DNA of 64,000 nucleotides from Deltaproteobacteria bacterium (lineage in GTDB: Bacteria > Desulfobacterota > BSN033 > UBA1163), in assembly GCA_020059605.1 (NCBI GenBank), contig JAGVBT010000049.1, forward strand, positions 45,120 to 109,119, in the 5' to 3' direction. Shown in pieces: positions 6,336 through 42,931 of this stretch (position 1 is its first letter; the number at the start of each line of letters is the position of its first letter). The notes beneath the pieces are model-generated. The model did not search any database, was not told the DNA's origin, and saw nothing but the letters and a program-made list of their open reading frames with translations. The position numbers and the translations under genes were made by a program.

Positions 6336-6410
<75 letters not shown>

Positions 6411-6412
6411 GG

Positions 6413-6487
6413 GGCGGCATAGCCAAGTGGTAAGGCGACGGTCTGCAAAACCGTTATTCACCGGTTCAAATCCGGTTGCCGCCTCCA
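6413..6487 (+). tRNA. tRNA-Cys (anticodon GCA)
   Basis: Acceptor GGCGGCA/TGCCGCC, anticodon loop CTGCAAA, T-arm ACCGG-TTCAAAT-CCGGT, CCA encoded. It lies 2 nt after tRNA-Gly. Confidence 0.85.
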
Positions 6488-6570
6488 AAAAAAACAGAAG
6501 GGATAAGGCGATCGCCTTATCCCTTTCTTCCAAGATTTCAACATTTCATTATTCCATGATGTTTTGCATG

Positions 6571-6647
6571 GGGCGATTAGCTCAGATGGATAGAGCGTTG
6601 GTCTCCGGAACCAAAGGCCGTGGGTTCAACTCCCGCATCGCCCACCA
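6571..6647 (+). tRNA. tRNA-Arg (anticodon CCG)
   Basis: Acceptor GGGCGAT/ATCGCCC, D-arm GCTC-AGATGGATA-GAGC, anticodon loop CTCCGGA, CCA encoded. Confidence 0.85.
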
Positions 6648-17430: not shown

Positions 17431-18159
17431 ATGAATCCTTCACAGGAGATTTCAATCTTCATCGCATTTACTGCAGGGATTCTCTCTTTTGTCTCGCCCT
17501 GTGTACTCCCCCTTGTTCCCTCCTATATCACCTATATCACAGGAGTTTCTTTCAAAGAGTTCACCGACGCCAACATAAGGCCCCGAATCAGGTGGGCCAC
17601 AATGCTGCATTCCACTCTTTTTATCTCGGGGTTTTCAACGGTCTTTATCCTGATGGGCGCATCGGCCTCTTATCTGGGACAGGTATTGATCGAATATCAA
17701 TCCTGGATTATGAAGGGAGGGGGGGTGCTCATTATCATCCTGGGAATTCATTTCACCGGGATCATCAACCTCCCATTCTTGCAGATGGAGAAACGCTTTG
17801 AATTGAGAAAGAAACCCCTGGGCTATCTGGGGTCTTTTCTCGTGGGGGTCGTCTTTGCAGCCGGGTGGACCCCCTGTATCGGTCCCATCCTTTCGACGAT
17901 CCTCATCTATGCCAGCACATCAAAAGATTCCACGACCGGCGTCTATCTGTTAACGGTCTACTCCATGGGACTTGGAATTCCCTTCTTTCTTTCCTCCCTG
18001 GCCTTGAGCACTTTTCTTTCAGCCTTCGAAAGAATAAAGCGGCATATGAGGTGGATTACTTTGATCAGCGGGATTTTTTTGATCCTGATCGGGATCCTCT
18101 TTTTGACCGATACCTTCCGCGAAGTCAACGCCTTTTTCAACCGGCTCGCCAATCCCTGA
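17431..18159 (+). CDS. ccdA: cytochrome c biogenesis thiol-disulfide transporter CcdA (DsbD-family transmembrane core)
   Basis: Paired Cys in TM1 (FVSPCVLPLVPSYI) and a later TPCIGP. Six TM helices. 242 aa. Confidence 0.8.
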   Translation: MNPSQEISIFIAFTAGILSFVSPCVLPLVPSYITYITGVSFKEFTDANIRPRIRWATMLHSTLFISGFSTVFILMGASASYLGQVLIEYQSWIMKGGGVLIIILGIHFTGIINLPFLQMEKRFELRKKPLGYLGSFLVGVVFAAGWTPCIGPILSTILIYASTSKDSTTGVYLLTVYSMGLGIPFFLSSLALSTFLSAFERIKRHMRWITLISGIFLILIGILFLTDTFREVNAFFNRLANP

Positions 18160-18414: not shown

Positions 18415-18765
18415 GGACACAATTTGGTATTAATTTTGCTAATAAATATAAAGATAGGTCCTTAACGAGGGTATACTTCGACGGGCCCGGCACGAAGGGC
18501 CGCAAAATTCAGTTTCGATATCCATAGAATTGCAGACTTTAGTAAATTAATAAAGAATGGGAGGAAGGGTTGAGAGGATTTTGATTTTTTTTCTTTTTTT
18601 TGTTGACATTTATATAGTTTATTTTAAGATAGGCATGAATTCAAGCCAGGACCGCTGGAGTTTTTTGAGTCATAAAAACGAAATCGTAACCTATTTGGGC
18701 AAAAAAGATTAAGGTCTTGTCATTCCCGTGTCGACCGGGGAAAATTAAAAACAGGGGGGAATAAA

Positions 18766-19407
18766 ATGAAAGGTGTAAAACTGTTATGGATTGGATTTGT
18801 TTTTTTTCTGGCCACAGGCCTCATGGTTTCATCCCACCTCAACGGAGTATATGCGGGGTCTATTGTCGGCACAAAACACGATTTAAGCATAAGATCATGG
18901 GGAGCAGGGAGTGGTTCAAATCAAATTTGTATTTTCTGCCATACGCCTCATAATGCCAGGACTGATTTACCCGAAGTGCCCCTGTGGAATCATGGCACAA
19001 CCACAACGAATTTTAATCTCTACACAAGCCCCACACTTGATGCAACAGTAGGTCAACCAAACGGTGCGTCAAAAGCCTGTCTTTCCTGCCATGACGGAAC
19101 CGTTGGATTGGATGTTTTTGGGGAAAAAGCTTCCAGCCCGCATACGATCGGAGCAGGACGGTTTAATTTGGGGACAGACCTTTCAAACGACCATCCCATT
19201 TCTTTTACGTATGATGCCGCCCTGGCCGCCAAAGACAAAGGTTTATATGCACCAGTGGGAGCGGATAAGGTTGTAGAGGGTATTCCCCTCTATTACGGCA
19301 AAATGGAGTGTTCTTCCTGCCACAGCGTTCATGATAATACCAATCAACCTTTCCTTCGCCATACAAATGTTGGGAGCGCACTCTGCTTGAAGTGCCATAT
19401 AAAATAG
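18766..19407 (+). CDS. tetraheme c-type cytochrome (secreted)
   Basis: Signal peptide, then 4 CxxCH motifs (CIFCH, CLSCH, CSSCH, CLKCH) plus 8 further His. Homologous to the N-terminal ~190 aa of the 566-aa cytochrome at 24426. Confidence 0.8.
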   Translation: MKGVKLLWIGFVFFLATGLMVSSHLNGVYAGSIVGTKHDLSIRSWGAGSGSNQICIFCHTPHNARTDLPEVPLWNHGTTTTNFNLYTSPTLDATVGQPNGASKACLSCHDGTVGLDVFGEKASSPHTIGAGRFNLGTDLSNDHPISFTYDAALAAKDKGLYAPVGADKVVEGIPLYYGKMECSSCHSVHDNTNQPFLRHTNVGSALCLKCHIK

Positions 19408-19547
19408 GCTGCGGCAATCTGAATTATAGAGAATTCCCTTCAAACCGGTTCGACGATTTATTCAAATTCTTGGGTGCTTCAAATCCCCCCTCGCCTCTTG
19501 TCACAAGAGAGGGGAGGGGGGATTATTCATTTCGTATCATTTAACAT

Positions 19548-20702
19548 ATGCCATGCTTTTCCCTTAAGAAGCTTGCCGAAAGAATGCCGATGAGCCGATT
19601 TTTTAGGGAATTTCTGTCGGTTCTATTTTTGCTGACTGCATTCTGGGGGTGTGCGACCGCTCCGCATAAACAGGATGTCCGGCCGGCGGTTTTTTATCCT
19701 CCGTTGCCCAACCCGCCCCGTATCCAATACCTGTCAAGCTTCTCGTCGGCAAGAGATGTCAGTGCGCCTCAAAGCAAGCTGGCCGAATTCATCGTGGGGA
19801 AAGACCCTAAGGAAGAGTACGCCCTTAAGAAGCCTTATGGCCTTTCCATATTCGACGGGAAGATTTACGTGGTGGATACCCAGGGGCCCGGTTATGCCGT
19901 GTTTGACCTGAAGAATAAGCTGTTGAAAGGAGTTCCGGGGGCCGGGGCGGGGAGGATGAGGAAACCCATCAATCTCACCATTGACAGGGACGGGACCAAG
20001 TATGTTACGGACACCGGATTGAACCAGGTCCTTGCTTTCGATAAAGACGACAATTTTCTTCGGGCCTACGGGGTAAAGGACCAATTCAAACCCGGGGACG
20101 CAGCCGTATCAGGGGACCGCCTCTATGTCTCCGACCTGAAGAATCATGAAATCCAGGTCCTTGACAAGGTCTCGGGAACACTGCTTTTCAAATTCGCAAA
20201 AGCCGGGGCTAAGGAAGGAGAGCTCTATTATCCGACGAATATGGCGGTCGGGCCGAACGGCCACCTCTATGTTTCAGAAACGGGAAATTTCAGGGTCCAG
20301 AAGTTTACTCTTGAAGGAAAGCCTGTCCGGACATACGGCCAGGTTGGGAACAGGCCAGGGCAGTTTTCAAGGCCCAGGGGCATTGCATTGGACCGCCAGG
20401 GTAACATCTATATTGTGGATGCGGCCTTTGAAAATATCCAGATCATCGACCAGGAAGGCAGGGTCCTTCTCTTTTTCGGCCAGCCCGGGAACAACCGGGA
20501 GGATATCAATCTCCCCGCAGGCATTGTGATTGACTATGAAAATGTCCCTCTCTTTCAGCAATACGCCGATTCGAAGTTCAAACTGGAGTATCTCATCCTG
20601 GTAGCCAGCCAGTTCGGTGTGAGCAAGGTGAATGTGTTTGGGTTCGGAAGGATGGAAGGGATGGATTACACCGTTCCGGGACCGGTTCGCCAGAAGAAAT
20701 AA
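19548..20702 (+). CDS. NHL-repeat (six-bladed beta-propeller) lipoprotein
   Basis: Signal with Cys (LTAFWGC). Repeated NHL-type blades (YYPTNMAVGPNGHLYVSETGNFRVQKF, PRGIALDRQGNIYIVDAAFENIQII). Paralog of 23349-24425. Confidence 0.7.
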   Translation: MPCFSLKKLAERMPMSRFFREFLSVLFLLTAFWGCATAPHKQDVRPAVFYPPLPNPPRIQYLSSFSSARDVSAPQSKLAEFIVGKDPKEEYALKKPYGLSIFDGKIYVVDTQGPGYAVFDLKNKLLKGVPGAGAGRMRKPINLTIDRDGTKYVTDTGLNQVLAFDKDDNFLRAYGVKDQFKPGDAAVSGDRLYVSDLKNHEIQVLDKVSGTLLFKFAKAGAKEGELYYPTNMAVGPNGHLYVSETGNFRVQKFTLEGKPVRTYGQVGNRPGQFSRPRGIALDRQGNIYIVDAAFENIQIIDQEGRVLLFFGQPGNNREDINLPAGIVIDYENVPLFQQYADSKFKLEYLILVASQFGVSKVNVFGFGRMEGMDYTVPGPVRQKK

Positions 20703-20734
20703 CCATCCTTGATCCCCGGGTAGCGCCAACTCCA

Positions 20735-21313
20735 ATGGGTCTCAGGATTAGAAAACGTCCATTTGCCGCCCTTTTCCTCTTTTTCGCTGTCCTCTTCACT
20801 TTGGCAGGTTGTGATCCGGAGACCCGGTACCGGGCGCTCAATTTTTTCTTTGACGGAGTCCCCCGGCCAGACGAACCGCCGAAGAAAGAGGAGATCCCTG
20901 CGGCCAAAATCGCCACCGTAAAACAGGAGGCTCAAGCGGAGACACCTTCAGAAATAGTTTATTACAGGCACCCGCCCGCAGAGGGAAAAGACGATTGTTC
21001 CTTCTGCCACGGGCCTGTCAGCCAAATTGTGATTCCTCCCAAGGACATGTGCCTGAAATGCCATGAACACCTGAAGGAAAACCGTCCCTTTCTCCATGGC
21101 CCGGCTGTCGTGGATTGCGTTTTTTGCCACAATGTCCACCGGAGCCAGACGAAAACCCTGCTGAGAAAAACCGGTAACCCCCTCTGTTTTGAATGCCATG
21201 ATCAACAGAGCGTGATTCAGGGAGAATCACATCGGGAGCTGAAGGAAGAGGAATTCGTTTGCCTTTCCTGCCATGACCCCCACGGCGGGAAAGACCGATT
21301 TTTCCTGCGATAA
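20735..21313 (+). CDS. pentaheme c-type cytochrome lipoprotein
   Basis: Canonical lipobox LAGC, then 5 CxxCH (CSFCH, CLKCH, CVFCH, CFECH, CLSCH) in 192 aa. Confidence 0.75.
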   Translation: MGLRIRKRPFAALFLFFAVLFTLAGCDPETRYRALNFFFDGVPRPDEPPKKEEIPAAKIATVKQEAQAETPSEIVYYRHPPAEGKDDCSFCHGPVSQIVIPPKDMCLKCHEHLKENRPFLHGPAVVDCVFCHNVHRSQTKTLLRKTGNPLCFECHDQQSVIQGESHRELKEEEFVCLSCHDPHGGKDRFFLR

Positions 21314-21321
21314 GAAAGAAT

Positions 21322-23313
21322 ATGTTCGTCCTAAACAGGGTGGAGATGCCCAGAAATTCCGACCTTATATTCATCTGCCTGACGATCCTGGTGGTTTCCG
21401 CCCTATTTGCGGGCGATTGCGCGGAAGCCCAGCGGGTCTACGGACGCGAAGAAGAGGAAATCCGTCTTTTTACGCTTCGGGAATTGGGCGGGGCGCTGGA
21501 GTTCAGGTTTGAGTATGAAGACGACCGGGAAGAGGGGGGAGGGAGGCCTTTTGAGAGAAAGGAGACCCGGTTCGAGGAGCTGTTACAGCTTAAGACCCGG
21601 GGGTCTCTTTATCACCCGAACCTTCTGGATTTCCGGATTGATACCACCTTTGGATTAAGGCAGCAAGTGTTCAGCGGAGACCTGGATGACCGCAAGCAAA
21701 CCTTTCCGTATGAATATCATGTCCATCTCAATTTTTTACGGGAGAAGCCTTACGGGTTCAACCTCTTTGCCCTTCGGTCCTCCAACCCGGTCGGGAGAAC
21801 CTTTTTTGAAACGATCGACATCGAGTCCGATTCCTACGGAGGGGCTTTCCGGTACCAAAATAAACTTTTCCCCATGACGCTGCTTCTTTTGAACCAGAGC
21901 ACAAAGGAGGATTCCCGGGATTATAAAAGAGACCGGAACGAACGGACCGCCGATTTCAGGGTTTCCAATAAGCTGAAGGATATCCTGGAGAGCGATTTCA
22001 AATATGTCTTGAAAGACCTCGTCGAGGAGATCCCGTTCAAACAGGAGATCACCACTCACGATATCAGCCTCAACAGCAGGCTGAGTTATGGCAAAATACG
22101 GGGGTTTTCCAACCTCTCCTACCTGAAGACATCGGGGGGTTTTAAAACGGATCAGCTGCGGATCATTGAAAATTTTCATGTCGATCATTCGAAGTCATTG
22201 ACCACCCTCTATCAGTATTATTTCTCCCATTTTGCGACTGAAGATTTCAGGTCCAATTTGAACCAGGGAAACATCGGGTTTCGGCACGCCCTTTACGAGA
22301 GCCTCGTCACCGAAGTCAGGGGGGAAGTCAGCCTGACGGATGCCACCGAGTTCGAGGAGCTCTATTACGGTTCCAATCTATCTCTTTCCTATCGAAAAAA
22401 AATCCCGGGCGGAGTCCTCTCTGCTGGATATCATTTTCTTTACAGAAGAACCGACCGGGAGGCGGAGGAAGGTGTCGTCAAGATCTTTGGAGAGCGGATC
22501 GTCCTCTCCGACAGTCAACGAACCTTTCTTGCTAACCCCAATGTGATTCGCGATTCGGTCATCGTCCGGGATTCGTTCGGCATCCTGTTGACGTTAAATG
22601 TCGATTACCGGCTCATCGTAAGCGGGAACCTGACCGAAATTCAACGTGTGGGCCTCCCGGACAACACCCCTGTCCTGGTCGATTATGAATTTTTATCTCC
22701 ACGGTCTCTCAAGTTTGATACCCTCAGCCATGGAGTGAACTTGCGTTACGACCTCGGGAGATTAATTTCATTGTACTACAATTATCTCAATGCCAGGCAA
22801 AAGGAGATTTCCGTCCGGCGCCGGGCAGAGTCCACCGCGGCCCTGTATGATACGGAGAGGAGTCTCTACGGGGCAGAATTGAAATGGCGCTGGTTTCAAA
22901 TTGCAGGCGAATACGAGGACGACAACTCCGAACTGATTCCCTTCACAGCTTACAGGGTGCGCGGCTATTTCAGCATCTCTCCCATCGAGCACACCTCCCT
23001 CAGCCTGAGCGCCATCCGCAGCCGGACCATGTATGAAAGGGACAGGAGAACAATGGTCACGAACCGGGCGGATGGACTCTTCCGTCTTCGCATCAATTCC
23101 TCTCTTGAAGCGTTGCTCGGGGCGGGATATTTAAGGGAGAAGGGAAGGGATATTGACACCCGGGCATGGAAATGGAAAGGTGATTTAATAGGAAAATTCC
23201 GCTCCATCGAATTGAGGCTCCAGTCGGAGTATCTGAAGAGGCGCGAGATCGCCCAGGACCGGGATGAAATCATCGTAAAACTAAAATTGATCCGGCACTT
23301 CCATATTCGCTAA
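21322..23313 (+). CDS. putative outer-membrane beta-barrel protein (porin-like partner of the cytochromes)
   Basis: Signal peptide. 663 aa, rich in Tyr/Arg/Ser/Asn with long runs of alternating hydrophobic residues typical of amphipathic beta-strands. No cysteine-rich or enzymatic motif. The start lies 8 bp after the pentaheme cytochrome stop. The C-terminus (HFHIR) is not a classical aromatic OMP terminus. Confidence 0.4.
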   Translation: MFVLNRVEMPRNSDLIFICLTILVVSALFAGDCAEAQRVYGREEEEIRLFTLRELGGALEFRFEYEDDREEGGGRPFERKETRFEELLQLKTRGSLYHPNLLDFRIDTTFGLRQQVFSGDLDDRKQTFPYEYHVHLNFLREKPYGFNLFALRSSNPVGRTFFETIDIESDSYGGAFRYQNKLFPMTLLLLNQSTKEDSRDYKRDRNERTADFRVSNKLKDILESDFKYVLKDLVEEIPFKQEITTHDISLNSRLSYGKIRGFSNLSYLKTSGGFKTDQLRIIENFHVDHSKSLTTLYQYYFSHFATEDFRSNLNQGNIGFRHALYESLVTEVRGEVSLTDATEFEELYYGSNLSLSYRKKIPGGVLSAGYHFLYRRTDREAEEGVVKIFGERIVLSDSQRTFLANPNVIRDSVIVRDSFGILLTLNVDYRLIVSGNLTEIQRVGLPDNTPVLVDYEFLSPRSLKFDTLSHGVNLRYDLGRLISLYYNYLNARQKEISVRRRAESTAALYDTERSLYGAELKWRWFQIAGEYEDDNSELIPFTAYRVRGYFSISPIEHTSLSLSAIRSRTMYERDRRTMVTNRADGLFRLRINSSLEALLGAGYLREKGRDIDTRAWKWKGDLIGKFRSIELRLQSEYLKRREIAQDRDEIIVKLKLIRHFHIR

Positions 23314-23348
23314 GAACGGGATAGAATTTTTTAAAATAAGGAGAAAAA

Positions 23349-24425
23349 ATGGTGCCTCCCCACCGGTTCTTTCCGGGCCGATTCGGTCGGTTCCCTGTCC
23401 TGTTTTCCTTGCTGCTCCTGGCATGGACGCTGGCCTTGAATGCGGGATGCGGAAAACCGTCTCCTCCCCCGGCCGGGGTTTCCACCCCATCTCTTGTGTG
23501 GCCGCTTCCCCCTGAAAAACCTCGGATCCAGTATCTCTATTCCATCGCGGTTCCCGAAGATATCGGCATCTCCGCCTCGGTTTATGAAAAGGTCGTGGGG
23601 CTTTTGGCGGGGAAGAAGCCGTCGCGGCAGATGGTGAGACCCTACGGAATCCATTTAAGCGGGGGCGGGATACTCTCTGTCACCGACCCTGGGATGGGAA
23701 CCGTGCATCAGTTCGATATGAGGAATTTGAGATACCATCAGATCAAGAGGTTTGGGCGAAAGAACCTCGTTTCACCGATCGGAGTGACCATGGATGAATC
23801 AGGGCTCCTTTATGTGTCCGACTCCATATTAAGAAAGATCTTTGTATTCGGTCAAAAGGGGGAGCCCGTGAGGGAACTCGGAGGTGAGGATCGGTTCATC
23901 CGGCCGACAGGAATGGCCTTTCATCCATCGTTGAATAGACTCTATGTCGCGGACACCCTGGGACAGTCCATTCAGGCCTTCGATCTCGGCGGGAATCTCC
24001 TCTTCGGTTTTGGAGGAAGGGGAAACAACGAGGGAGAGTTTAACTTTCCCACTTCTCTATCGATCGATCGGAACGGAAATTTATATGTGAACGATTCATT
24101 AAATTATCGAATTCAAATCTTCAAACCCGACGGGAAGTTCCTTGCCATGTTCGGAAGGCACGGGGATGGGATGGGTGAATTTTCAAACCCGAAGGGAGTT
24201 GCCCTCGATACGGAAGGGCATATCTACGTGGCGGACGCTCTTTTCGATTCGGTTCAAATCTTCAGTCCGAAAGGGGAGCTTCTCCTTTTTTTTGGCGAGG
24301 CCGGGAGGAAGGCGGGAGAATTCTGGATGCCTGCTTCCCTCTTCATCGATCCTACCAATCGGATTTTTGTCGCCGATTCCTACAATCAGAGAATTCAGGT
24401 GTTTCAATTTCTCGGGGGGCATTAG
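23349..24425 (+). CDS. NHL-repeat (beta-propeller) lipoprotein, paralog of 19548-20702
   Basis: Signal with Cys (LALNAGCGK). NHL blades (GEFNFPTSLSIDRNGNLYVNDSLNYRIQIF, GEFSNPKGVALDTEGHIYVADALFDSVQIF). Shares the N-terminal P-x-P-R-I-Q-Y-L motif with the first NHL protein. Confidence 0.7.
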   Translation: MVPPHRFFPGRFGRFPVLFSLLLLAWTLALNAGCGKPSPPPAGVSTPSLVWPLPPEKPRIQYLYSIAVPEDIGISASVYEKVVGLLAGKKPSRQMVRPYGIHLSGGGILSVTDPGMGTVHQFDMRNLRYHQIKRFGRKNLVSPIGVTMDESGLLYVSDSILRKIFVFGQKGEPVRELGGEDRFIRPTGMAFHPSLNRLYVADTLGQSIQAFDLGGNLLFGFGGRGNNEGEFNFPTSLSIDRNGNLYVNDSLNYRIQIFKPDGKFLAMFGRHGDGMGEFSNPKGVALDTEGHIYVADALFDSVQIFSPKGELLLFFGEAGRKAGEFWMPASLFIDPTNRIFVADSYNQRIQVFQFLGGH

Positions 24426-26126
24426 ATGATAAGACGAAGAACGACCGGAACGCTGATCCTCTTCCTGCTCCTTCTTTTTCATAGCCGTGCGGAGGGAAGA
24501 AGCATTATTTTCACAAAGCATAACCTGTCCGTCTCCGGCCCCGGGCCTGTCAAGGCAACGGTTGAGAGACCTGTCTGCCAATTCTGCCATACCCCTCATC
24601 ATGCGGGACAGGCCAAGCCGCTGTGGAACAAGGATATCCCCGAGATTCTTTATACCACTTACCGGAGTTCGTCGCTCAAAGCGGGTCCCGGGCAACCGAA
24701 CGGGGCCTCCAAGCTTTGTCTCTCGTGCCATGACGGAACCATTGCCCTGGGGTTGCTTCGAAGCGAAAGCCAGATTCTCCCCTTTGCGGGGGGCGTGTTG
24801 ACCATGCCCCCCGGAAGAACAAACTTGGGCCTTGATCTCTCCGACGACCACCCGATTTCATTTCCGTATGACAGCGCCCTGGCGTTCCGGAACGGCCAGT
24901 TGGAGGATCCGGCAAATTTGAGAAGGCCGGTGAAATTGGATTCCTATGGCCAGCTCCAGTGCACGAGCTGCCATAATCCTCATGACGACCATTTTGGGAA
25001 ATTCCTGGTGATGGAGAATCGTTATTCGGCCCTCTGTATCACCTGCCACAAGAAGACAGGGTGGATGATTACCTCGCATCGAAGCTCGTGCCGGACCTGG
25101 AACGGGGGACCTCCGAATCCATGGCCCCATACTTCCTATGCGACCGTTTCCGAAAACGGATGCGAAAATTGCCATCGTCCCCATGCAGCCGGAGGAAGAG
25201 AGAGGCTGCTGAATTACGATGTGGAAGAGGAAAATTGTTATCCCTGCCATAATGGAAACGTGGCCTCCAGGAATCTGAAGAACGAATTCATGAAGCCCTA
25301 TCGCCACCCCGTGGAGGGCAGCAAGGGAATCCATTTTCCGGACGAAGATCCCCTCTGGGCGACTCGCCACGTGGAATGCGCCGATTGCCATAATCCCCAT
25401 TCCGCCAACGCCGCTACTGCAAACCCGCCGATGGCCTCGGGGAGGATATCAAATGTCGCGGGGATTTCTTCTTCCGGGACGGTCGTTTTTCCCCTTACTT
25501 ACGAGTATGAATTATGTTACCGTTGCCACGCGGACAACCCTGGGACAAAGCCCCTTCTTGTGACCCGTTATCTCTTCGAGCCCAATCTTCGATACAGATT
25601 CAAACCCTCCAATGCCTCTTATCATCCGGTTGAGGCGGTCGGGAAAAATGCGGACTGCCCAAGCCTTCTCATTCCTTACACCACCTCCAGCCTCATTTAC
25701 TGCACCGATTGTCACAACAACGATTCGGGTCAAAAGGCAGGAGGGGTCGGGCCCAGCGGACCCCACGGATCGATCTGGAGGCCCCTTTTGGAAAGGCAGA
25801 TGGTTACAGCGGATTACACGATCGAAAGCGCCCAGGCCTACGCTCTTTGTTACAAATGTCATGACCGGAATTCGATCCTGTCCGGTCAAAGTTTTACAAA
25901 ACACCGGAAACATATCGTGGATGAGAGGACTCCCTGCACCGCCTGTCATGACCCCCACGGGGTGGCGACGAATCCGCACCTCATTAACTTTGATAAAATG
26001 ATTGTTTTTCCCAATGATCAGGGGATCCTTCAGTTTGAGGACCGGGGGCGGTCTGCGGGGGCCTGCTCTTTGAGATGTCATGGAATCAACCACAAGGGGA
26101 GGAATTATCAGCGGGATATCCCGTAG
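24426..26126 (+). CDS. multiheme c-type cytochrome (11 CxxCH plus one CxxxCH)
   Basis: Signal peptide, 11 canonical CxxCH and a C-terminal CSLRCH (CX3CH). The N-terminal 190 aa are homologous to the tetraheme cytochrome at 18766. The start codon abuts the stop of the NHL gene (TAGATG). Confidence 0.8.
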   Translation: MIRRRTTGTLILFLLLLFHSRAEGRSIIFTKHNLSVSGPGPVKATVERPVCQFCHTPHHAGQAKPLWNKDIPEILYTTYRSSSLKAGPGQPNGASKLCLSCHDGTIALGLLRSESQILPFAGGVLTMPPGRTNLGLDLSDDHPISFPYDSALAFRNGQLEDPANLRRPVKLDSYGQLQCTSCHNPHDDHFGKFLVMENRYSALCITCHKKTGWMITSHRSSCRTWNGGPPNPWPHTSYATVSENGCENCHRPHAAGGRERLLNYDVEEENCYPCHNGNVASRNLKNEFMKPYRHPVEGSKGIHFPDEDPLWATRHVECADCHNPHSANAATANPPMASGRISNVAGISSSGTVVFPLTYEYELCYRCHADNPGTKPLLVTRYLFEPNLRYRFKPSNASYHPVEAVGKNADCPSLLIPYTTSSLIYCTDCHNNDSGQKAGGVGPSGPHGSIWRPLLERQMVTADYTIESAQAYALCYKCHDRNSILSGQSFTKHRKHIVDERTPCTACHDPHGVATNPHLINFDKMIVFPNDQGILQFEDRGRSAGACSLRCHGINHKGRNYQRDIP

Positions 26127-26189: not shown

Positions 26190-27179
26190 TCAATCGGTCT
26201 TAAAAAAGGATTGAAGCGCCTTTTTATATTCCAATAAAGCGCGTTCTTTCTGTCCTTCCTTTTCATAGAGCCTTCCGAGATGGTAATGGACCTCGGGAGT
26301 CTCGTGCCGGTCTTGCAGCAGATCTTCCAGCCTTTTGATGGCTTTTGTATTCTCCCCCATCAATTCCAAAGAGAGCGCGATCCCGACGGACCCCTGTCTT
26401 AAATTGGGATTCAGGCCGATTCCCCTCTCAAAGAATTCAATGGCCTCTTTTGGGTTCTTCTCTTTGAGATGGATCATCCCCAGCCCTACGTATGCATCGG
26501 CATGGCCGGGATCCAGCTGGATGGCTTTCAACCATTCTTCCCTGGCCCTCTCTTGAGAACCTTTTTCAAAAAGATTCTTCCCGAGATTGAAATGGGCCTG
26601 GGCCTTCTTTTTGTTTTCCGGTTGGGGATCGCCCCTGGGTTGACGCTCTTTTTCCCATTCCTCGGCTGTTTTCTTCCCCATGGCCACCAGGACTTCTCCT
26701 TCCACGATCTCGTCAAGCGAGTGGGTGTAAGGAAAGGCCTTGAGAAGCCTCCTTTCCTCATCCAGGATGCCTGCAGTCGGAATCACATGAACTCCATAGG
26801 CGCCGTACACTTCCCTTTTATCATCAAGGAGCATAGGATGGGACCAGTCATGGGCGCGCCTTAACTTTTTGACCTTCTCTTTGGCATCGGGATCCGAAAT
26901 AATGGAGATCAAATAAAGGCCATCACCCTTGAGCCGGCGGTAAAGGCCCTCCAGCCGATTCATAACGCTCAAAGACCTTTTCTCCTTGACAGGGGTGTCG
27001 ATGCCCCAGAAAAGAAGCACCACCTTGCCCCCCTTGATCGATGGGAGGACAATGTCGTTGCCGTCAAGGTCCTTCAATTGAATCTCGGGGGCTTTCTCCC
27101 CGATCTCGAGGTTGCGAAACGCAGAGACACCCGTAGGAGAAAGCATTCCGGCAAGAATAACTGGGAAGAGGAGAGACAT
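26190..27179 (-). CDS. periplasmic thioredoxin-fold (TlpA/AhpC-like, lacking CxxC) + TPR-repeat protein
   Basis: Signal peptide. N-terminal Trx-like fold with FWGIDTP in place of the WCxxC active site. C-terminal TPR repeats (AHFNLGKNLFEKG ... AYVGLGMIHLKEKNPKEA ...). Confidence 0.55.
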   Translation of the reverse strand: MSLLFPVILAGMLSPTGVSAFRNLEIGEKAPEIQLKDLDGNDIVLPSIKGGKVVLLFWGIDTPVKEKRSLSVMNRLEGLYRRLKGDGLYLISIISDPDAKEKVKKLRRAHDWSHPMLLDDKREVYGAYGVHVIPTAGILDEERRLLKAFPYTHSLDEIVEGEVLVAMGKKTAEEWEKERQPRGDPQPENKKKAQAHFNLGKNLFEKGSQERAREEWLKAIQLDPGHADAYVGLGMIHLKEKNPKEAIEFFERGIGLNPNLRQGSVGIALSLELMGENTKAIKRLEDLLQDRHETPEVHYHLGRLYEKEGQKERALLEYKKALQSFFKTD

Positions 27180-27266: not shown

Positions 27267-28946
27267 TCAGTATTTTACCGGTTTTGCCCGGTCATAGGTG
27301 AAGGGTTTGTGGCAACCGACCACGCAGGTGCCTCCCGTGGGGGTCTTCGTAAAATGAATGGGATAGCTCCACATCTTTCCGTAAGGCACTTCTTTCCTGA
27401 TGTGTTTCGGCTGGTTCCCGGCATGGACTTCGTGGCATGCCTTGCAGCTTCTTCCTTTTCTTTCCTTATTCACATGGACAAAATGAAGATTGCGGTCTCC
27501 GTTTCGAAAGCTCGTCAGCTCCAGCGTCTTGGGGTGGAGGGCGATATCCTTGTTGTGGCAGTCGAAACAGATGGCATAGTTCTCCGTCTTGTAGGAGATA
27601 TAAAATTCGACCGGGAAATAGTTTTTTAAGATCCTCGGAAAAAGCGATCCATGGGTTTGATGGCAGGCGGCGCAGTCATTCTGCTCCACAGGACCATGAA
27701 AATATTTGCTTGTTCTGGTTTTTTCTCCCAGGTCCTGATGGCAGGTAAAACAAATTTCCTTGAGCGGAGCCTTCAGTAGTTTTTCAAAATCGGTGAAATG
27801 AACGCCGTGGCACGCCGAACACTCCCCTTTTTGAACTGGCTGGTGAGGGAACTTGGCCTGGGCAATGGATTGGGTGGTTTTCGGATGGATGGTTTGATGG
27901 CACTCAATGCACAGTTGATTCTGCACTTTTCGCAGCAAGGCCTTCTGTGAGGAGGCGTGAGGATCATGGCATTCCTGGCAATTCTCTTTGATGATGGGGT
28001 GGACGTATTTTTTATTTAAACCTTTCTCGATGTCTTGATGGCAGGAGTAGCAGAGCTTTTCCGAAGGCAGGGTCAATAATTTCTTATTGGGCGAAGCGTG
28101 CGCATGGTGGCAGGCAATGCAATCCCCGCCTTTGAGCGGTTCATGGAGGTTGGCCTGCTTAACGAGCTTAGCGTCATGGCAATTAAAGCAGAATTCCTGT
28201 CGGGAGGAGCTTTTCAATTGGTAGCGGAGAGGAGATTGATGTGGGTCATGGCAATCGCTGCACCCGCCTTCTGATACGGGTGCATGGACCGACTTCCCCT
28301 TAAATTCTTCCGCTTCCGTTTCATGGCAGATGTAGCAACCTTCCGCCCCCGGCCTGGTCATCATGTTTTTGAAAGGCGTGCCATGGGGATTGTGGCAGGC
28401 GATGCATGTTCCCGAACCAACCGGCCCATGGACAAAATTTGCCTTTCCCATCTGGGAGTGGCACTGGGGGGAGACGCAGGTCGCGCTGGGAATCATTTTC
28501 TTATAAGAGAAAGGTTCTCCCTTTAAGGCATGACAATCCTGGCATTGGTCTTCTCTCTCTATCGGGAAATGGATGGTATAAGGCCGGAAGCCTTCAGGAG
28601 GCCTGGCATCCTCTGTTGAAAAGTGGATCGAGAGCGGTTGTGTCATCCTGCCGGCCTGGTCCTGAACCGATATTTCATTCAGTCCCTTCTTGAGGCGAAT
28701 TGCAACGGTGAAGGCCCCCTTGAGGACAGGAACGGTTGTTGTTCCCAGGACCTCCCCTCCCTTCACCTGGCACGTAACATTCTTGACGGATGGATCCGTG
28801 GCCACCCCGATGATCCTGATTCTCTCCCATTTAACGACGCTGCGGTCGGCAGGATAAACGATACGAAACCCTTCTTTTGCAGCCCCCGTGTGAATCGGCA
28901 GCAGAAGGCAACACATGCATATCCCAACCAGAATAACATTCCTCAT
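27267..28946 (-). CDS. large multiheme c-type cytochrome (14 CxxCH + CX4CH + CX3CH) with N-terminal Ig-like beta domain
   Basis: Signal peptide and ~110-aa beta-rich domain. This is followed by c3/c7-like repeat units (…HGPV..G.CxxCH.PH…) containing 14 canonical CxxCH plus CVSPQCH and CVVGCH. Confidence 0.8.
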   Translation of the reverse strand: MRNVILVGICMCCLLLPIHTGAAKEGFRIVYPADRSVVKWERIRIIGVATDPSVKNVTCQVKGGEVLGTTTVPVLKGAFTVAIRLKKGLNEISVQDQAGRMTQPLSIHFSTEDARPPEGFRPYTIHFPIEREDQCQDCHALKGEPFSYKKMIPSATCVSPQCHSQMGKANFVHGPVGSGTCIACHNPHGTPFKNMMTRPGAEGCYICHETEAEEFKGKSVHAPVSEGGCSDCHDPHQSPLRYQLKSSSRQEFCFNCHDAKLVKQANLHEPLKGGDCIACHHAHASPNKKLLTLPSEKLCYSCHQDIEKGLNKKYVHPIIKENCQECHDPHASSQKALLRKVQNQLCIECHQTIHPKTTQSIAQAKFPHQPVQKGECSACHGVHFTDFEKLLKAPLKEICFTCHQDLGEKTRTSKYFHGPVEQNDCAACHQTHGSLFPRILKNYFPVEFYISYKTENYAICFDCHNKDIALHPKTLELTSFRNGDRNLHFVHVNKERKGRSCKACHEVHAGNQPKHIRKEVPYGKMWSYPIHFTKTPTGGTCVVGCHKPFTYDRAKPVKY

Positions 28947-34614: not shown

Positions 34615-34689
34615 AGGCACGTAGCTCAGGGGGAGAGCGCTACCTTGACGCGGTAGAAGTCTGGGGTTCAAATCCCCACGTGCCTACCA
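34615..34689 (+). tRNA. tRNA-Val (anticodon GAC)
   Basis: Acceptor AGGCACG/CGTGCCT, anticodon loop TTGACGC, T-arm TGGGG-TTCAAAT-CCCCA, CCA encoded. Confidence 0.8.

Positions 34690-42854: not shown

Positions 42855-42931
<77 letters not shown>

Follow-up and report, generated by a model that had tools for sequence, protein, structure and literature searches.

How might electrons cross the outer membrane where a five-haem cytochrome is encoded immediately ahead of a large protein that looks like a beta-barrel? The question is raised by a gene pair in a 64,000-nucleotide stretch of DNA (the window) from a Deltaproteobacteria bacterium of the phylum Desulfobacterota (assembly GCA_020059605.1, contig JAGVBT010000049.1, positions 45,120 to 109,119 of the forward strand). 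The pair consists of a pentahaem lipoprotein cytochrome and a 663-residue predicted outer-membrane barrel protein (Table 1). Based on sequence comparisons and structure models, we suggest with a probability of about 0.6 that the pair forms the core of an MtrAB-like electron conduit through the outer membrane, which would feed and perhaps anchor an extracellular cytochrome filament. The pair most likely represents a new and widespread kind of outer-membrane 'electrical socket'. Fold, homologies, synteny and gene fusions were computed, and all evidence presented here is computational. Porin-cytochrome conduits serve Gram-negative bacteria in mineral and electrode respiration, in steel corrosion and in electron exchange with partners. 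To our knowledge, Mtr is the only porin-cytochrome complex to have been solved structurally.

Table 1. The gene pair, the genes surrounding it and one domain of the barrel protein, with positions in the window
Feature	Position	Strand	Description
CcdA/DsbD-type membrane protein	17431..18159	+	Pfam DsbD_TM E=1e-18; just upstream of the six-gene cassette
Secreted tetrahaem cytochrome, OmcE homologue	18766..19407	+	213 amino acids (aa), 4 CxxCH
NHL-repeat beta-propeller lipoprotein 1	19548..20702	+	Pfam NHL E=2.4e-22; Cys after ...FWG
Pentahaem lipoprotein cytochrome	20735..21313	+	192 aa, half-size MtrA/DmsE relative
Predicted outer-membrane beta-barrel	21322..23313	+	663 aa, ~28 strands, large unannotated family
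Conserved globular insert in the barrel	residues ~382-461 (22465..22704)	+	Conservation, no dyad pattern
NHL-repeat beta-propeller lipoprotein 2	23349..24425	+	Pfam NHL E=8.7e-29; …NAGC followed by GKPSPPP
Secreted 11-haem cytochrome	24426..26126	+	566 aa, 11 CxxCH + 1 CxxxCH
Thioredoxin-like (AhpC/TSA, ResA-like) + TPR protein	26190..27179	-	Pfam/NCBIfam
559-aa cytochrome	27267..28946	-	14 CxxCH + 1 CxxxCH (seven paired-CxxCH repeats); Pfam Paired_CXXCH_1 E=9.6e-76

The original prediction described a lipobox-bearing five-haem cytochrome followed, after a gap of 8 bp, by an open reading frame (ORF) of 663 aa, and this description was borne out. The stop codon of the pentahaem gene ends at position 21313, and an 8-nt spacer (GAAAGAAT) leads to the barrel ATG at 21322. 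The CxxCH motifs of the cytochrome begin at residues 88, 106, 128, 151 and 176, and the lipobox L-A-G-C26 leaves a mature part of 167 residues. All five CxxCH motifs are invariant in an alignment of 51 orthologues, as are four candidate distal histidines (H79, H121, H135 and H166). A fifth candidate distal histidine, H183, and the lipobox cysteine are kept in at least 90% of the same sequences. Given this conservation in orthologues, the haem count and the lipoprotein status are selected features rather than products of chance. Common lipoboxes among the orthologues are LTGC, LAGC and FSGC, and a …LNFFFDGVP… motif just past the lipobox cysteine is nearly invariant across the 51 proteins. The chain is laid out as LAGC26, the conserved RYRALNFFFDGVP motif, a flexible linker of ~30 aa and a five-haem domain of ~117 aa. 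In an AlphaFold2 (AF2) model with a predicted local distance difference test score (pLDDT) of 78, the signal and anchor helix is followed by a second, short helix that is conserved, then by ~30 linker residues of low confidence and finally by the haem domain with its ~117 residues.

The pentahaem cytochrome is clearly homologous to DmsE/MtrA by sequence, yet fails membership of the decahaem family. The NCBIfam model for DmsE/MtrA decahaems (TIGR03508) scores 81.8 bits, under its cutoff of 192.2, and the protein encodes five CxxCH motifs, not ten. The more distant relatives of the cytochrome are DmsE-family decahaems of ~300 aa. A profile of the orthologues matches 6r2q_A among PDB sequences with E=6e-27 and aligns with both of its halves (98-222 and 230-324). 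The same chain is the sole significant Foldseek match of the pentahaem model (E=2.3e-4, template modelling (TM) score 0.43), and no other significant relative was seen among PDB sequences either. Chain A of 6R2Q is MtrA, and the molecule name printed for this chain is evidently mislabelled. In a solved structure MtrA lies inside the barrel MtrB, and it is the one cytochrome for which such a position is known. The pentahaem cytochrome is accordingly described here as a half-size relative of MtrA with a predicted lipid tether.

The second protein was originally described as having a signal peptide and no cysteine clusters, and both points hold. The signal peptide covers residues 1-36 and ends in an A-x-A site followed by a conserved mature start, QRVYGxEEEE. 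The only two cysteines (residues 19 and 33) lie within the signal peptide. The mature part has a high content of Leu, Arg, Glu, Ser, Tyr and Phe. Run on a 29-sequence alignment, AF2 produced an all-beta model with strands from residue 50 to 661 (mean pLDDT 87, predicted TM score 0.72). A Foldseek search of this model against PDB returned 309 matches at E<=0.001, and the best 50 of the 309 are all large outer-membrane barrels, namely FimD ushers, TonB-dependent receptors, LptD, OprD-type porins and MtrB. Structure prediction thereby supports the large outer-membrane barrel fold proposed for the protein. Among the Foldseek matches listed, the top TM-score belongs to MtrB (6r2q_B; 0.44 by query and 0.45 by target), and the best E-value belongs to a FimD usher, with a TM-score to ushers of 0.28. 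A TM-score of 0.44 indicates that the model shares the fold class of MtrB, not its family.

Sequence searches place the barrel in a large family of its own. The original prediction had likened the protein to MtrB/PioB-type barrels, and this affiliation found no sequence match. The barrel matched nothing in Pfam or NCBIfam at E<=0.1, including the models MtrB_PioB and TIGR03509, and ten other family members matched no family in these collections at E<=1. Scans of 20 family members against Pfam and NCBIfam gave chance-level matches only, with no MtrB_PioB, TIGR03509 or other porin family among them. The family profile likewise reached no PDB chain at E<=10, MtrB included. The barrel is hence not a member of MtrB/PioB as judged by sequence. 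HMMER searches over 1.84 billion cluster representatives recovered 1,540 barrel relatives at E<=0.001 (clusters at 50% identity) and 144 at E<=1e-30, nearly all of them 600-700 aa long. A second word-index homologue search, based on a 149-sequence alignment, recovered no proteins beyond the 36 of the first.

The family-level signal clarifies two features that were ambiguous in the single sequence. A 149-sequence profile projected on the predicted strands shows an alternating hydrophobic (dyad) pattern in 28 strands, with residues ~385-442 lacking the pattern. Single strands in the window sequence are unusually polar. DSSP and the profile give 28 strands, possibly 30, and this count is an estimate, as is the lumen size. 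The non-aromatic C-terminus had been seen as atypical and as making the barrel call uncertain. The window protein does end in …HFHIR, but the family mostly ends in Phe. Of 174 family proteins with 580 aa or more, 127 end in Phe, 27 in Leu and 9 in Trp, and the consensus C-terminus is …R-R-x-F. In the window protein, which ends …IRHFHIR, R658-H-F660 corresponds to the R-x-F of the family and is followed by three extra residues. Close relatives end in …RYFNIL or …RYFNIF. As a beta-signal-like F660 is present though not terminal, the objection raised by the C-terminus is weakened, not removed. Residues G94, H98 and P99 (a YHPN motif, ~21601-21618) and H322 (22285-22287) are nearly invariant among 149 diverse members. 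The barrel protein contains no haem motifs.

The most conserved part of the barrel family is a globular insert, in which invariant and near-invariant columns cluster. The insert is probably a small immunoglobulin-like (Ig-like) beta-sandwich. The NCBIfam model NF052337 (phage major tail/tube Ig-like domain) scores 25-37 bits in six and 15 bits in a seventh of ten members scanned, all sub-threshold, and a weak match to phrog_807 (phage tail protein Ig-like domain) has E=1.8e-5. A profile of the insert domain found nothing significant in PDB. An origin of the locus from a prophage or mobile element was considered and rejected, because the tail-tube matches are limited to the ~80-residue insert and housekeeping genes surround the locus. 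The surroundings include gatB-, clpB-, tsaD- and rsmA-like ORFs and show no sign of a mobile element. Both the insert and a loop at residues 496-510 are located at odd-to-even strand junctions, which places these two long connections on the same face of the barrel. This face would be the extracellular one in the model if the convention of periplasmic termini applies.

The association of the two genes is retained over large evolutionary distances. Among the 12 fetched loci that reach far enough, 10 have the pentahaem gene directly 5' of the barrel gene, which makes 8 of 10 when loci are counted by distinct gene arrangements. The loci with the adjacent pair are L001, L002/L003, L004, L005, L007, L008, L010, L012/L013 and L015, with the gene upstream of the barrel in L015 being recognised from its haem count only. 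The pair recurs with barrel identity down to 24-30%, and the carriers are metagenome-assembled genomes (MAGs) labelled as Syntrophaceae, Desulfarculales, Thermodesulfobacteriota and Phycisphaerales. A scan of a genome collection using closer barrel sequences found 8 close relatives. A search for cultured carriers and for names given by the source returned only MAG entries termed 'hypothetical protein' or 'predicted CXXCH cytochrome family protein'.

Natural gene fusions also link the two proteins. Three cluster representatives (P0111, P0113 and P0172; 887-940 aa) combine the pentahaem cytochrome and the barrel in a single chain. In the fusions, a lipobox and a …FFFDGVP… motif precede the five CxxCH motifs, and a Pro/Ala-rich linker (~100-130 residues) then leads to the barrel. 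In the one fusion contig examined, P0113 (L016, 3219-6041) fills the slot of the two separate genes, in the order cytochrome, NHL, fusion and NHL. The N-terminus of known outer-membrane proteins is periplasmic. The cytochrome is joined at the N-terminus of the barrel, and by analogy the pentahaem domain is therefore most likely on the periplasmic side. The barrel model, the synteny, the natural fusions and the homology to MtrA all support the original reading of the two genes as a porin-cytochrome pair.

Beyond the pair that was described originally, the analysis found a six-gene operon (18766-26126) around it, whose genes are spaced by 140, 32, 8, 35 and 0 nt, and this context alters the probable purpose of the conduit. 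The cassette encodes, in order, the OmcE-like tetrahaem cytochrome, an NHL lipoprotein, the pentahaem cytochrome, the barrel, a second NHL lipoprotein and the 11-haem cytochrome. This order is kept in all the loci listed above for the adjacent pair, and is rearranged yet present in L006 and L011. The latter two loci are from Desulfarculales, and upstream of the barrel each has a tandem array of four OmcE-like paralogues (L006 1648-5756, L011 1037-5405). Their pentahaem, NHL and 11-haem genes are on the opposite strand at a distance of a few kb. The first NHL lipoprotein has an orthologue in every complete cassette, with the cysteine kept in the orthologues (...WGC or ...SGC). Orthologues of the second are found directly 3' of the barrel in all fetched loci extending past the barrel, except L006 and L011.

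By sequence, the tetrahaem cytochrome that opens the cassette is homologous to OmcE along its full length. A phmmer search matched PDB chain 7TFS_A over the full length (E=1.5e-38, residues 17-213 against 12-232), with all haem ligands aligned, including the histidines in KHDLS, CHTPH, NDHP and CHxVHD. A further match is 9yuq_N (E=2.9e-27), from a 16-chain entry named 'putative multiheme cytochrome c'. 7TFS is the Geobacter OmcE nanowire (PMC12954529). The protein encoded here may form filaments as well. Across loci, the cassette starts with 1-4 OmcE-like genes in tandem. The 11-haem cytochrome at the other end, whose start codon abuts the stop codon of the second NHL lipoprotein without any intergenic base, contains a related module. 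An OmcE-like tetrahaem module occupies its N-terminal ~200 aa and matches 7TFS_A (E=4.7e-26, residues 10-210), and this module (residues ~26-210, 24501-25055) is 44% identical to the 213-aa tetrahaem cytochrome over 190 aa. The remainder resembles domain II/IV of MtrC/MtrF (Pfam PF22113, 54.6 bits against a cutoff of 30). The 11-haem protein could serve a filament as its base or adaptor subunit.

The conduit that we propose would operate as follows. The 663-aa protein would form an outer-membrane barrel of ~28 strands, and the pentahaem cytochrome would be lipid-anchored beside it in the inner leaflet of the outer membrane. From there, the haem domain would enter the lumen from the periplasmic side via the flexible tether of ~30 residues. 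A compact chain of five bis-His haems could then carry electrons across the membrane, in the direction of either export or uptake. Soluble multihaem cytochromes might charge the system in the periplasm, with the adjacent 14-haem protein being a candidate. Outside, the pentahaem cytochrome would pass electrons to the 11-haem cytochrome, whose OmcE-like module may connect it to polymerised OmcE-like tetrahaem subunits. Scaffolding or assembly of the complex might fall to the two NHL propeller lipoproteins. A more far-reaching version seems rather doubtful to us. The cassette would then be a self-contained, horizontally mobile 'nanowire socket', in which one barrel family both exports and anchors an OmcE-type filament, the 11-haem protein is the base subunit, and a lipid-tethered half-MtrA inside the barrel wires the base to the periplasm.

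Several observations weigh against a conduit of this kind. With no sequence relation between the barrel and MtrB/PioB, the analogy to MtrB rests on fold class and genomic context. Five haems would extend over ~35-40 Å, as estimated from MtrA (ten haems, ~80 Å), and would barely span the membrane. The pentahaem gene is separated from the barrel gene in the Desulfarculales loci, where it lies a few kb away on the opposite strand. The lipobox cysteine is followed by Asp at position +2 (Cys26-Asp27, 20810-20815), as in 26 of the 49 orthologues that keep the cysteine, and in E. coli an Asp at this position of a lipoprotein signals retention in the inner membrane. Retention would make the pentahaem cytochrome a periplasm-facing relay, and the barrel would house another protein such as part of the 11-haem cytochrome. 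The two NHL lipoproteins carry Ala or Gly at +2, which sets the pentahaem cytochrome apart, and a flexible linker would equally suit a tether in the inner membrane. However, the +2 rule was established for Enterobacteria and differs elsewhere, and the other 23 of the 49 orthologues have Asn, Ser or Ala at +2. The fusions bind the same domain covalently to a barrel and have Ser or Gly at +2, and the homology to MtrA fits a role inserted in the barrel. We consider a relay in the inner membrane quite improbable. The tetrahaem and 11-haem cytochromes also pose a difficulty, as both carry ordinary Sec signals without an identified export route. Presumed extracellular cytochromes lacking an identified route out of the cell raise the prospect that the barrel serves secretion instead.

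The barrel might accordingly be mainly a secretion or assembly channel, usher-like or OscEFG-like, that exports the 11-haem cytochrome along with the OmcE-like subunit and anchors both. In that case, the pentahaem cytochrome would only dock at the periplasmic mouth to charge the filament, an arrangement that would be compatible with a conduit. The cassette encodes two Sec-dependent cytochromes that are not lipoproteins and are presumably extracellular, and the barrel is the only outer-membrane channel available to them within the cassette. The best Foldseek E-value for a FimD usher, the conserved globular insert reminiscent of the plug in ushers and the one to four OmcE-like genes heading the cassette all fit secretion. 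Related companions have been described for OmcS. The omcS-companion operon of Geobacter (osc) has been proposed, in the account of Shen 2025 as cited in PMC13194489, to encode a folding factor (OscH), secretion factors (OscEFG) and a morphology factor (OscD), and an NHL protein adjoins omcS (PMC9070056). Nevertheless, the TM-score to ushers is well below that to MtrB (0.28 against 0.44), and the insert is on the conventionally extracellular face, whereas the plug of ushers is periplasmic. The cassette contains no peptidyl-prolyl isomerase or ATPase, and a fusion of a haem wire to a barrel is more easily explained if the wire works in or at the barrel. Secretion as the main role of the barrel therefore appears unlikely. 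Another objection would be that the barrel prediction is wrong, or that the 663-aa protein handles solutes as an ordinary porin or transporter, and that the cytochrome neighbourhood carries no mechanistic meaning. No sequence match links the protein to characterised conduit barrels, the single strands of the window sequence are unusually polar and the C-terminus is atypical. These points are set against strict synteny over distant lineages, natural fusions with the cytochrome, a high-confidence AF2 model, and the dyad pattern and terminal Phe of the family. An unrelated porin or a failed barrel prediction is hence very hard to reconcile with the data.

A conduit formed by the pair would resemble, by analogy in function, MtrAB, the Ext/Pcc clusters of Geobacter and above all the Uet cluster. 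MtrAB(C) of Shewanella (6R2Q) and the related PioAB and MtoAB also combine a large barrel gene with an adjacent multihaem cytochrome of the MtrA/DmsE lineage. MtrB is the closest of the listed barrels by TM-score, the pentahaem cytochrome matches both halves of MtrA, and the operon includes a cytochrome similar to domain II/IV of MtrC. In contrast to MtrB/PioB, the barrel described here lacks sequence similarity to that family, has ~28 strands rather than 26 and contains a conserved globular insert. The inner cytochrome has five haems and a lipobox, unlike the periplasmic decahaems of the MtrA/PioA type. The outer cytochrome is not a lipoprotein, and the unit includes two NHL propellers and an OmcE-like gene.

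The Uet, Ext and Desulfovibrio ferrophilus systems were compared with the cassette through their published descriptions. The Uet cluster of 'Ca. Tenderia electrophaga' comprises the tetrahaem UetA, the predicted 28-strand barrel UetC, the NHL proteins UetH and UetI and the undecahaem UetJ, which is predicted to be extracellular (bioRxiv 10.1101/2022.05.06.490989). Cytochrome maturation genes are found nearby, and the cluster also encodes the isomerase UetB, the trihaem c7 cytochromes UetD, UetE and UetG and the cupredoxin UetF (bioRxiv 10.1101/2022.05.06.490989). Compared by description, Uet of 'Ca. Tenderia electrophaga' and Gallionella shares with the cassette a parts list of a four-haem cytochrome, a barrel of ~28 strands, two NHL proteins and an 11(+1)-haem cytochrome. 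Gene order differs, and an isomerase, trihaem c7 cytochromes and a cupredoxin are not encoded in the window between 17431 and 28946. A pentahaem lipoprotein is not described for Uet. Geobacter sulfurreducens contains the porin-cytochrome clusters ExtEFG, ExtABCD and OmaB/OmbB/OmcB, with Ext barrels predicted to have 18-21 strands (PMC6148476). The Ext clusters resemble the cassette in that an outer-membrane integral protein is accompanied by a small pentahaem lipoprotein (ExtF, ExtC) and by larger multihaem partners (PMC6148476). The pentahaem lipoproteins of the G. sulfurreducens clusters are, however, assigned to the outer surface, and neither NHL nor OmcE-like genes are described there. In Desulfovibrio ferrophilus, DFE_0448-0451 and DFE_0461-0465 encode multihaem cytochromes together with NHL beta-propellers proposed to stabilise an outer-membrane cytochrome complex (PMC5815863, PMC9769857). 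These clusters share the multihaem cytochromes and NHL propellers with the cassette but are reported to be porin-less, whereas a barrel is central here. The first gene of the cassette links the locus to the OmcE nanowire (7TFS), and propeller and channel-like companions are known for OmcS from the accounts cited above. An eLife paper on OmcZ does not treat gene context. The literature searched, which was incomplete, contained no account of an OmcE homologue sharing a cassette with a dedicated barrel and a half-MtrA, and such an arrangement may already be known for Geobacter omcE.

The genes flanking the cassette include likely accessories. The CcdA/DsbD-type protein, which probably assists the cassette as an accessory, is part of the thiol-reduction arm of cytochrome c maturation. 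Orthologues of the thioredoxin-like TPR protein adjoin the cassette in L002, L004, L005, L007 and L012, and this protein is probably an accessory of cytochrome maturation or assembly. The two genes resemble a dedicated thiol-reduction pair for cytochrome c maturation. Orthologues of the 559-aa cytochrome with 13-14 haems are found beside the cassette in the same five loci and in L015. This 14-haem protein scores 160 bits against the DmsE family, under the cutoff, and is a candidate for a periplasmic electron relay. A glucodextranase-B-like (Ig-like) domain is located at its N-terminus. The cassette is the sole haem-rich locus in the window. Searches with Rfam detected tRNAs only, with five tRNA genes, three of them clustered, at 6336-6644, 34615-34686 and 42855-42928. 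Motif scans for sigma-70 promoters, terminators and sigma-54 elements stayed at chance level. A sigma-54-like -24/-12 element (TGGTAT-N5-TTGCT, 18425-18440) is located ~325 nt 5' of the operon and occurs at chance frequency in the window. Genes for a sigma-54 activator and a histidine kinase adjoin the cassette in L001 (1909-4871), L002 (1-516) and L008 (12-3842).

The barrel family has no match in Pfam-A or NCBIfam and its members are labelled 'hypothetical', so environmental surveys for homologues of MtrB, OmbB or Cyc2 would probably miss it. The five-haem wire domain of 117 residues and the single-chain fusions of cytochrome and barrel could be attractive parts for engineering. The partnership of the barrel with an OmcE homologue is a candidate for how nanowires are wired to the periplasm and exit from the cell. 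If the 'nanowire socket' were true, the cassette would offer a first candidate answer to how cytochrome nanowires connect to the cell. The solution would then be common to several lineages, including Thermodesulfobacteriota and Phycisphaerales MAGs, within a barrel family of ~1,500 clusters at 50% identity.

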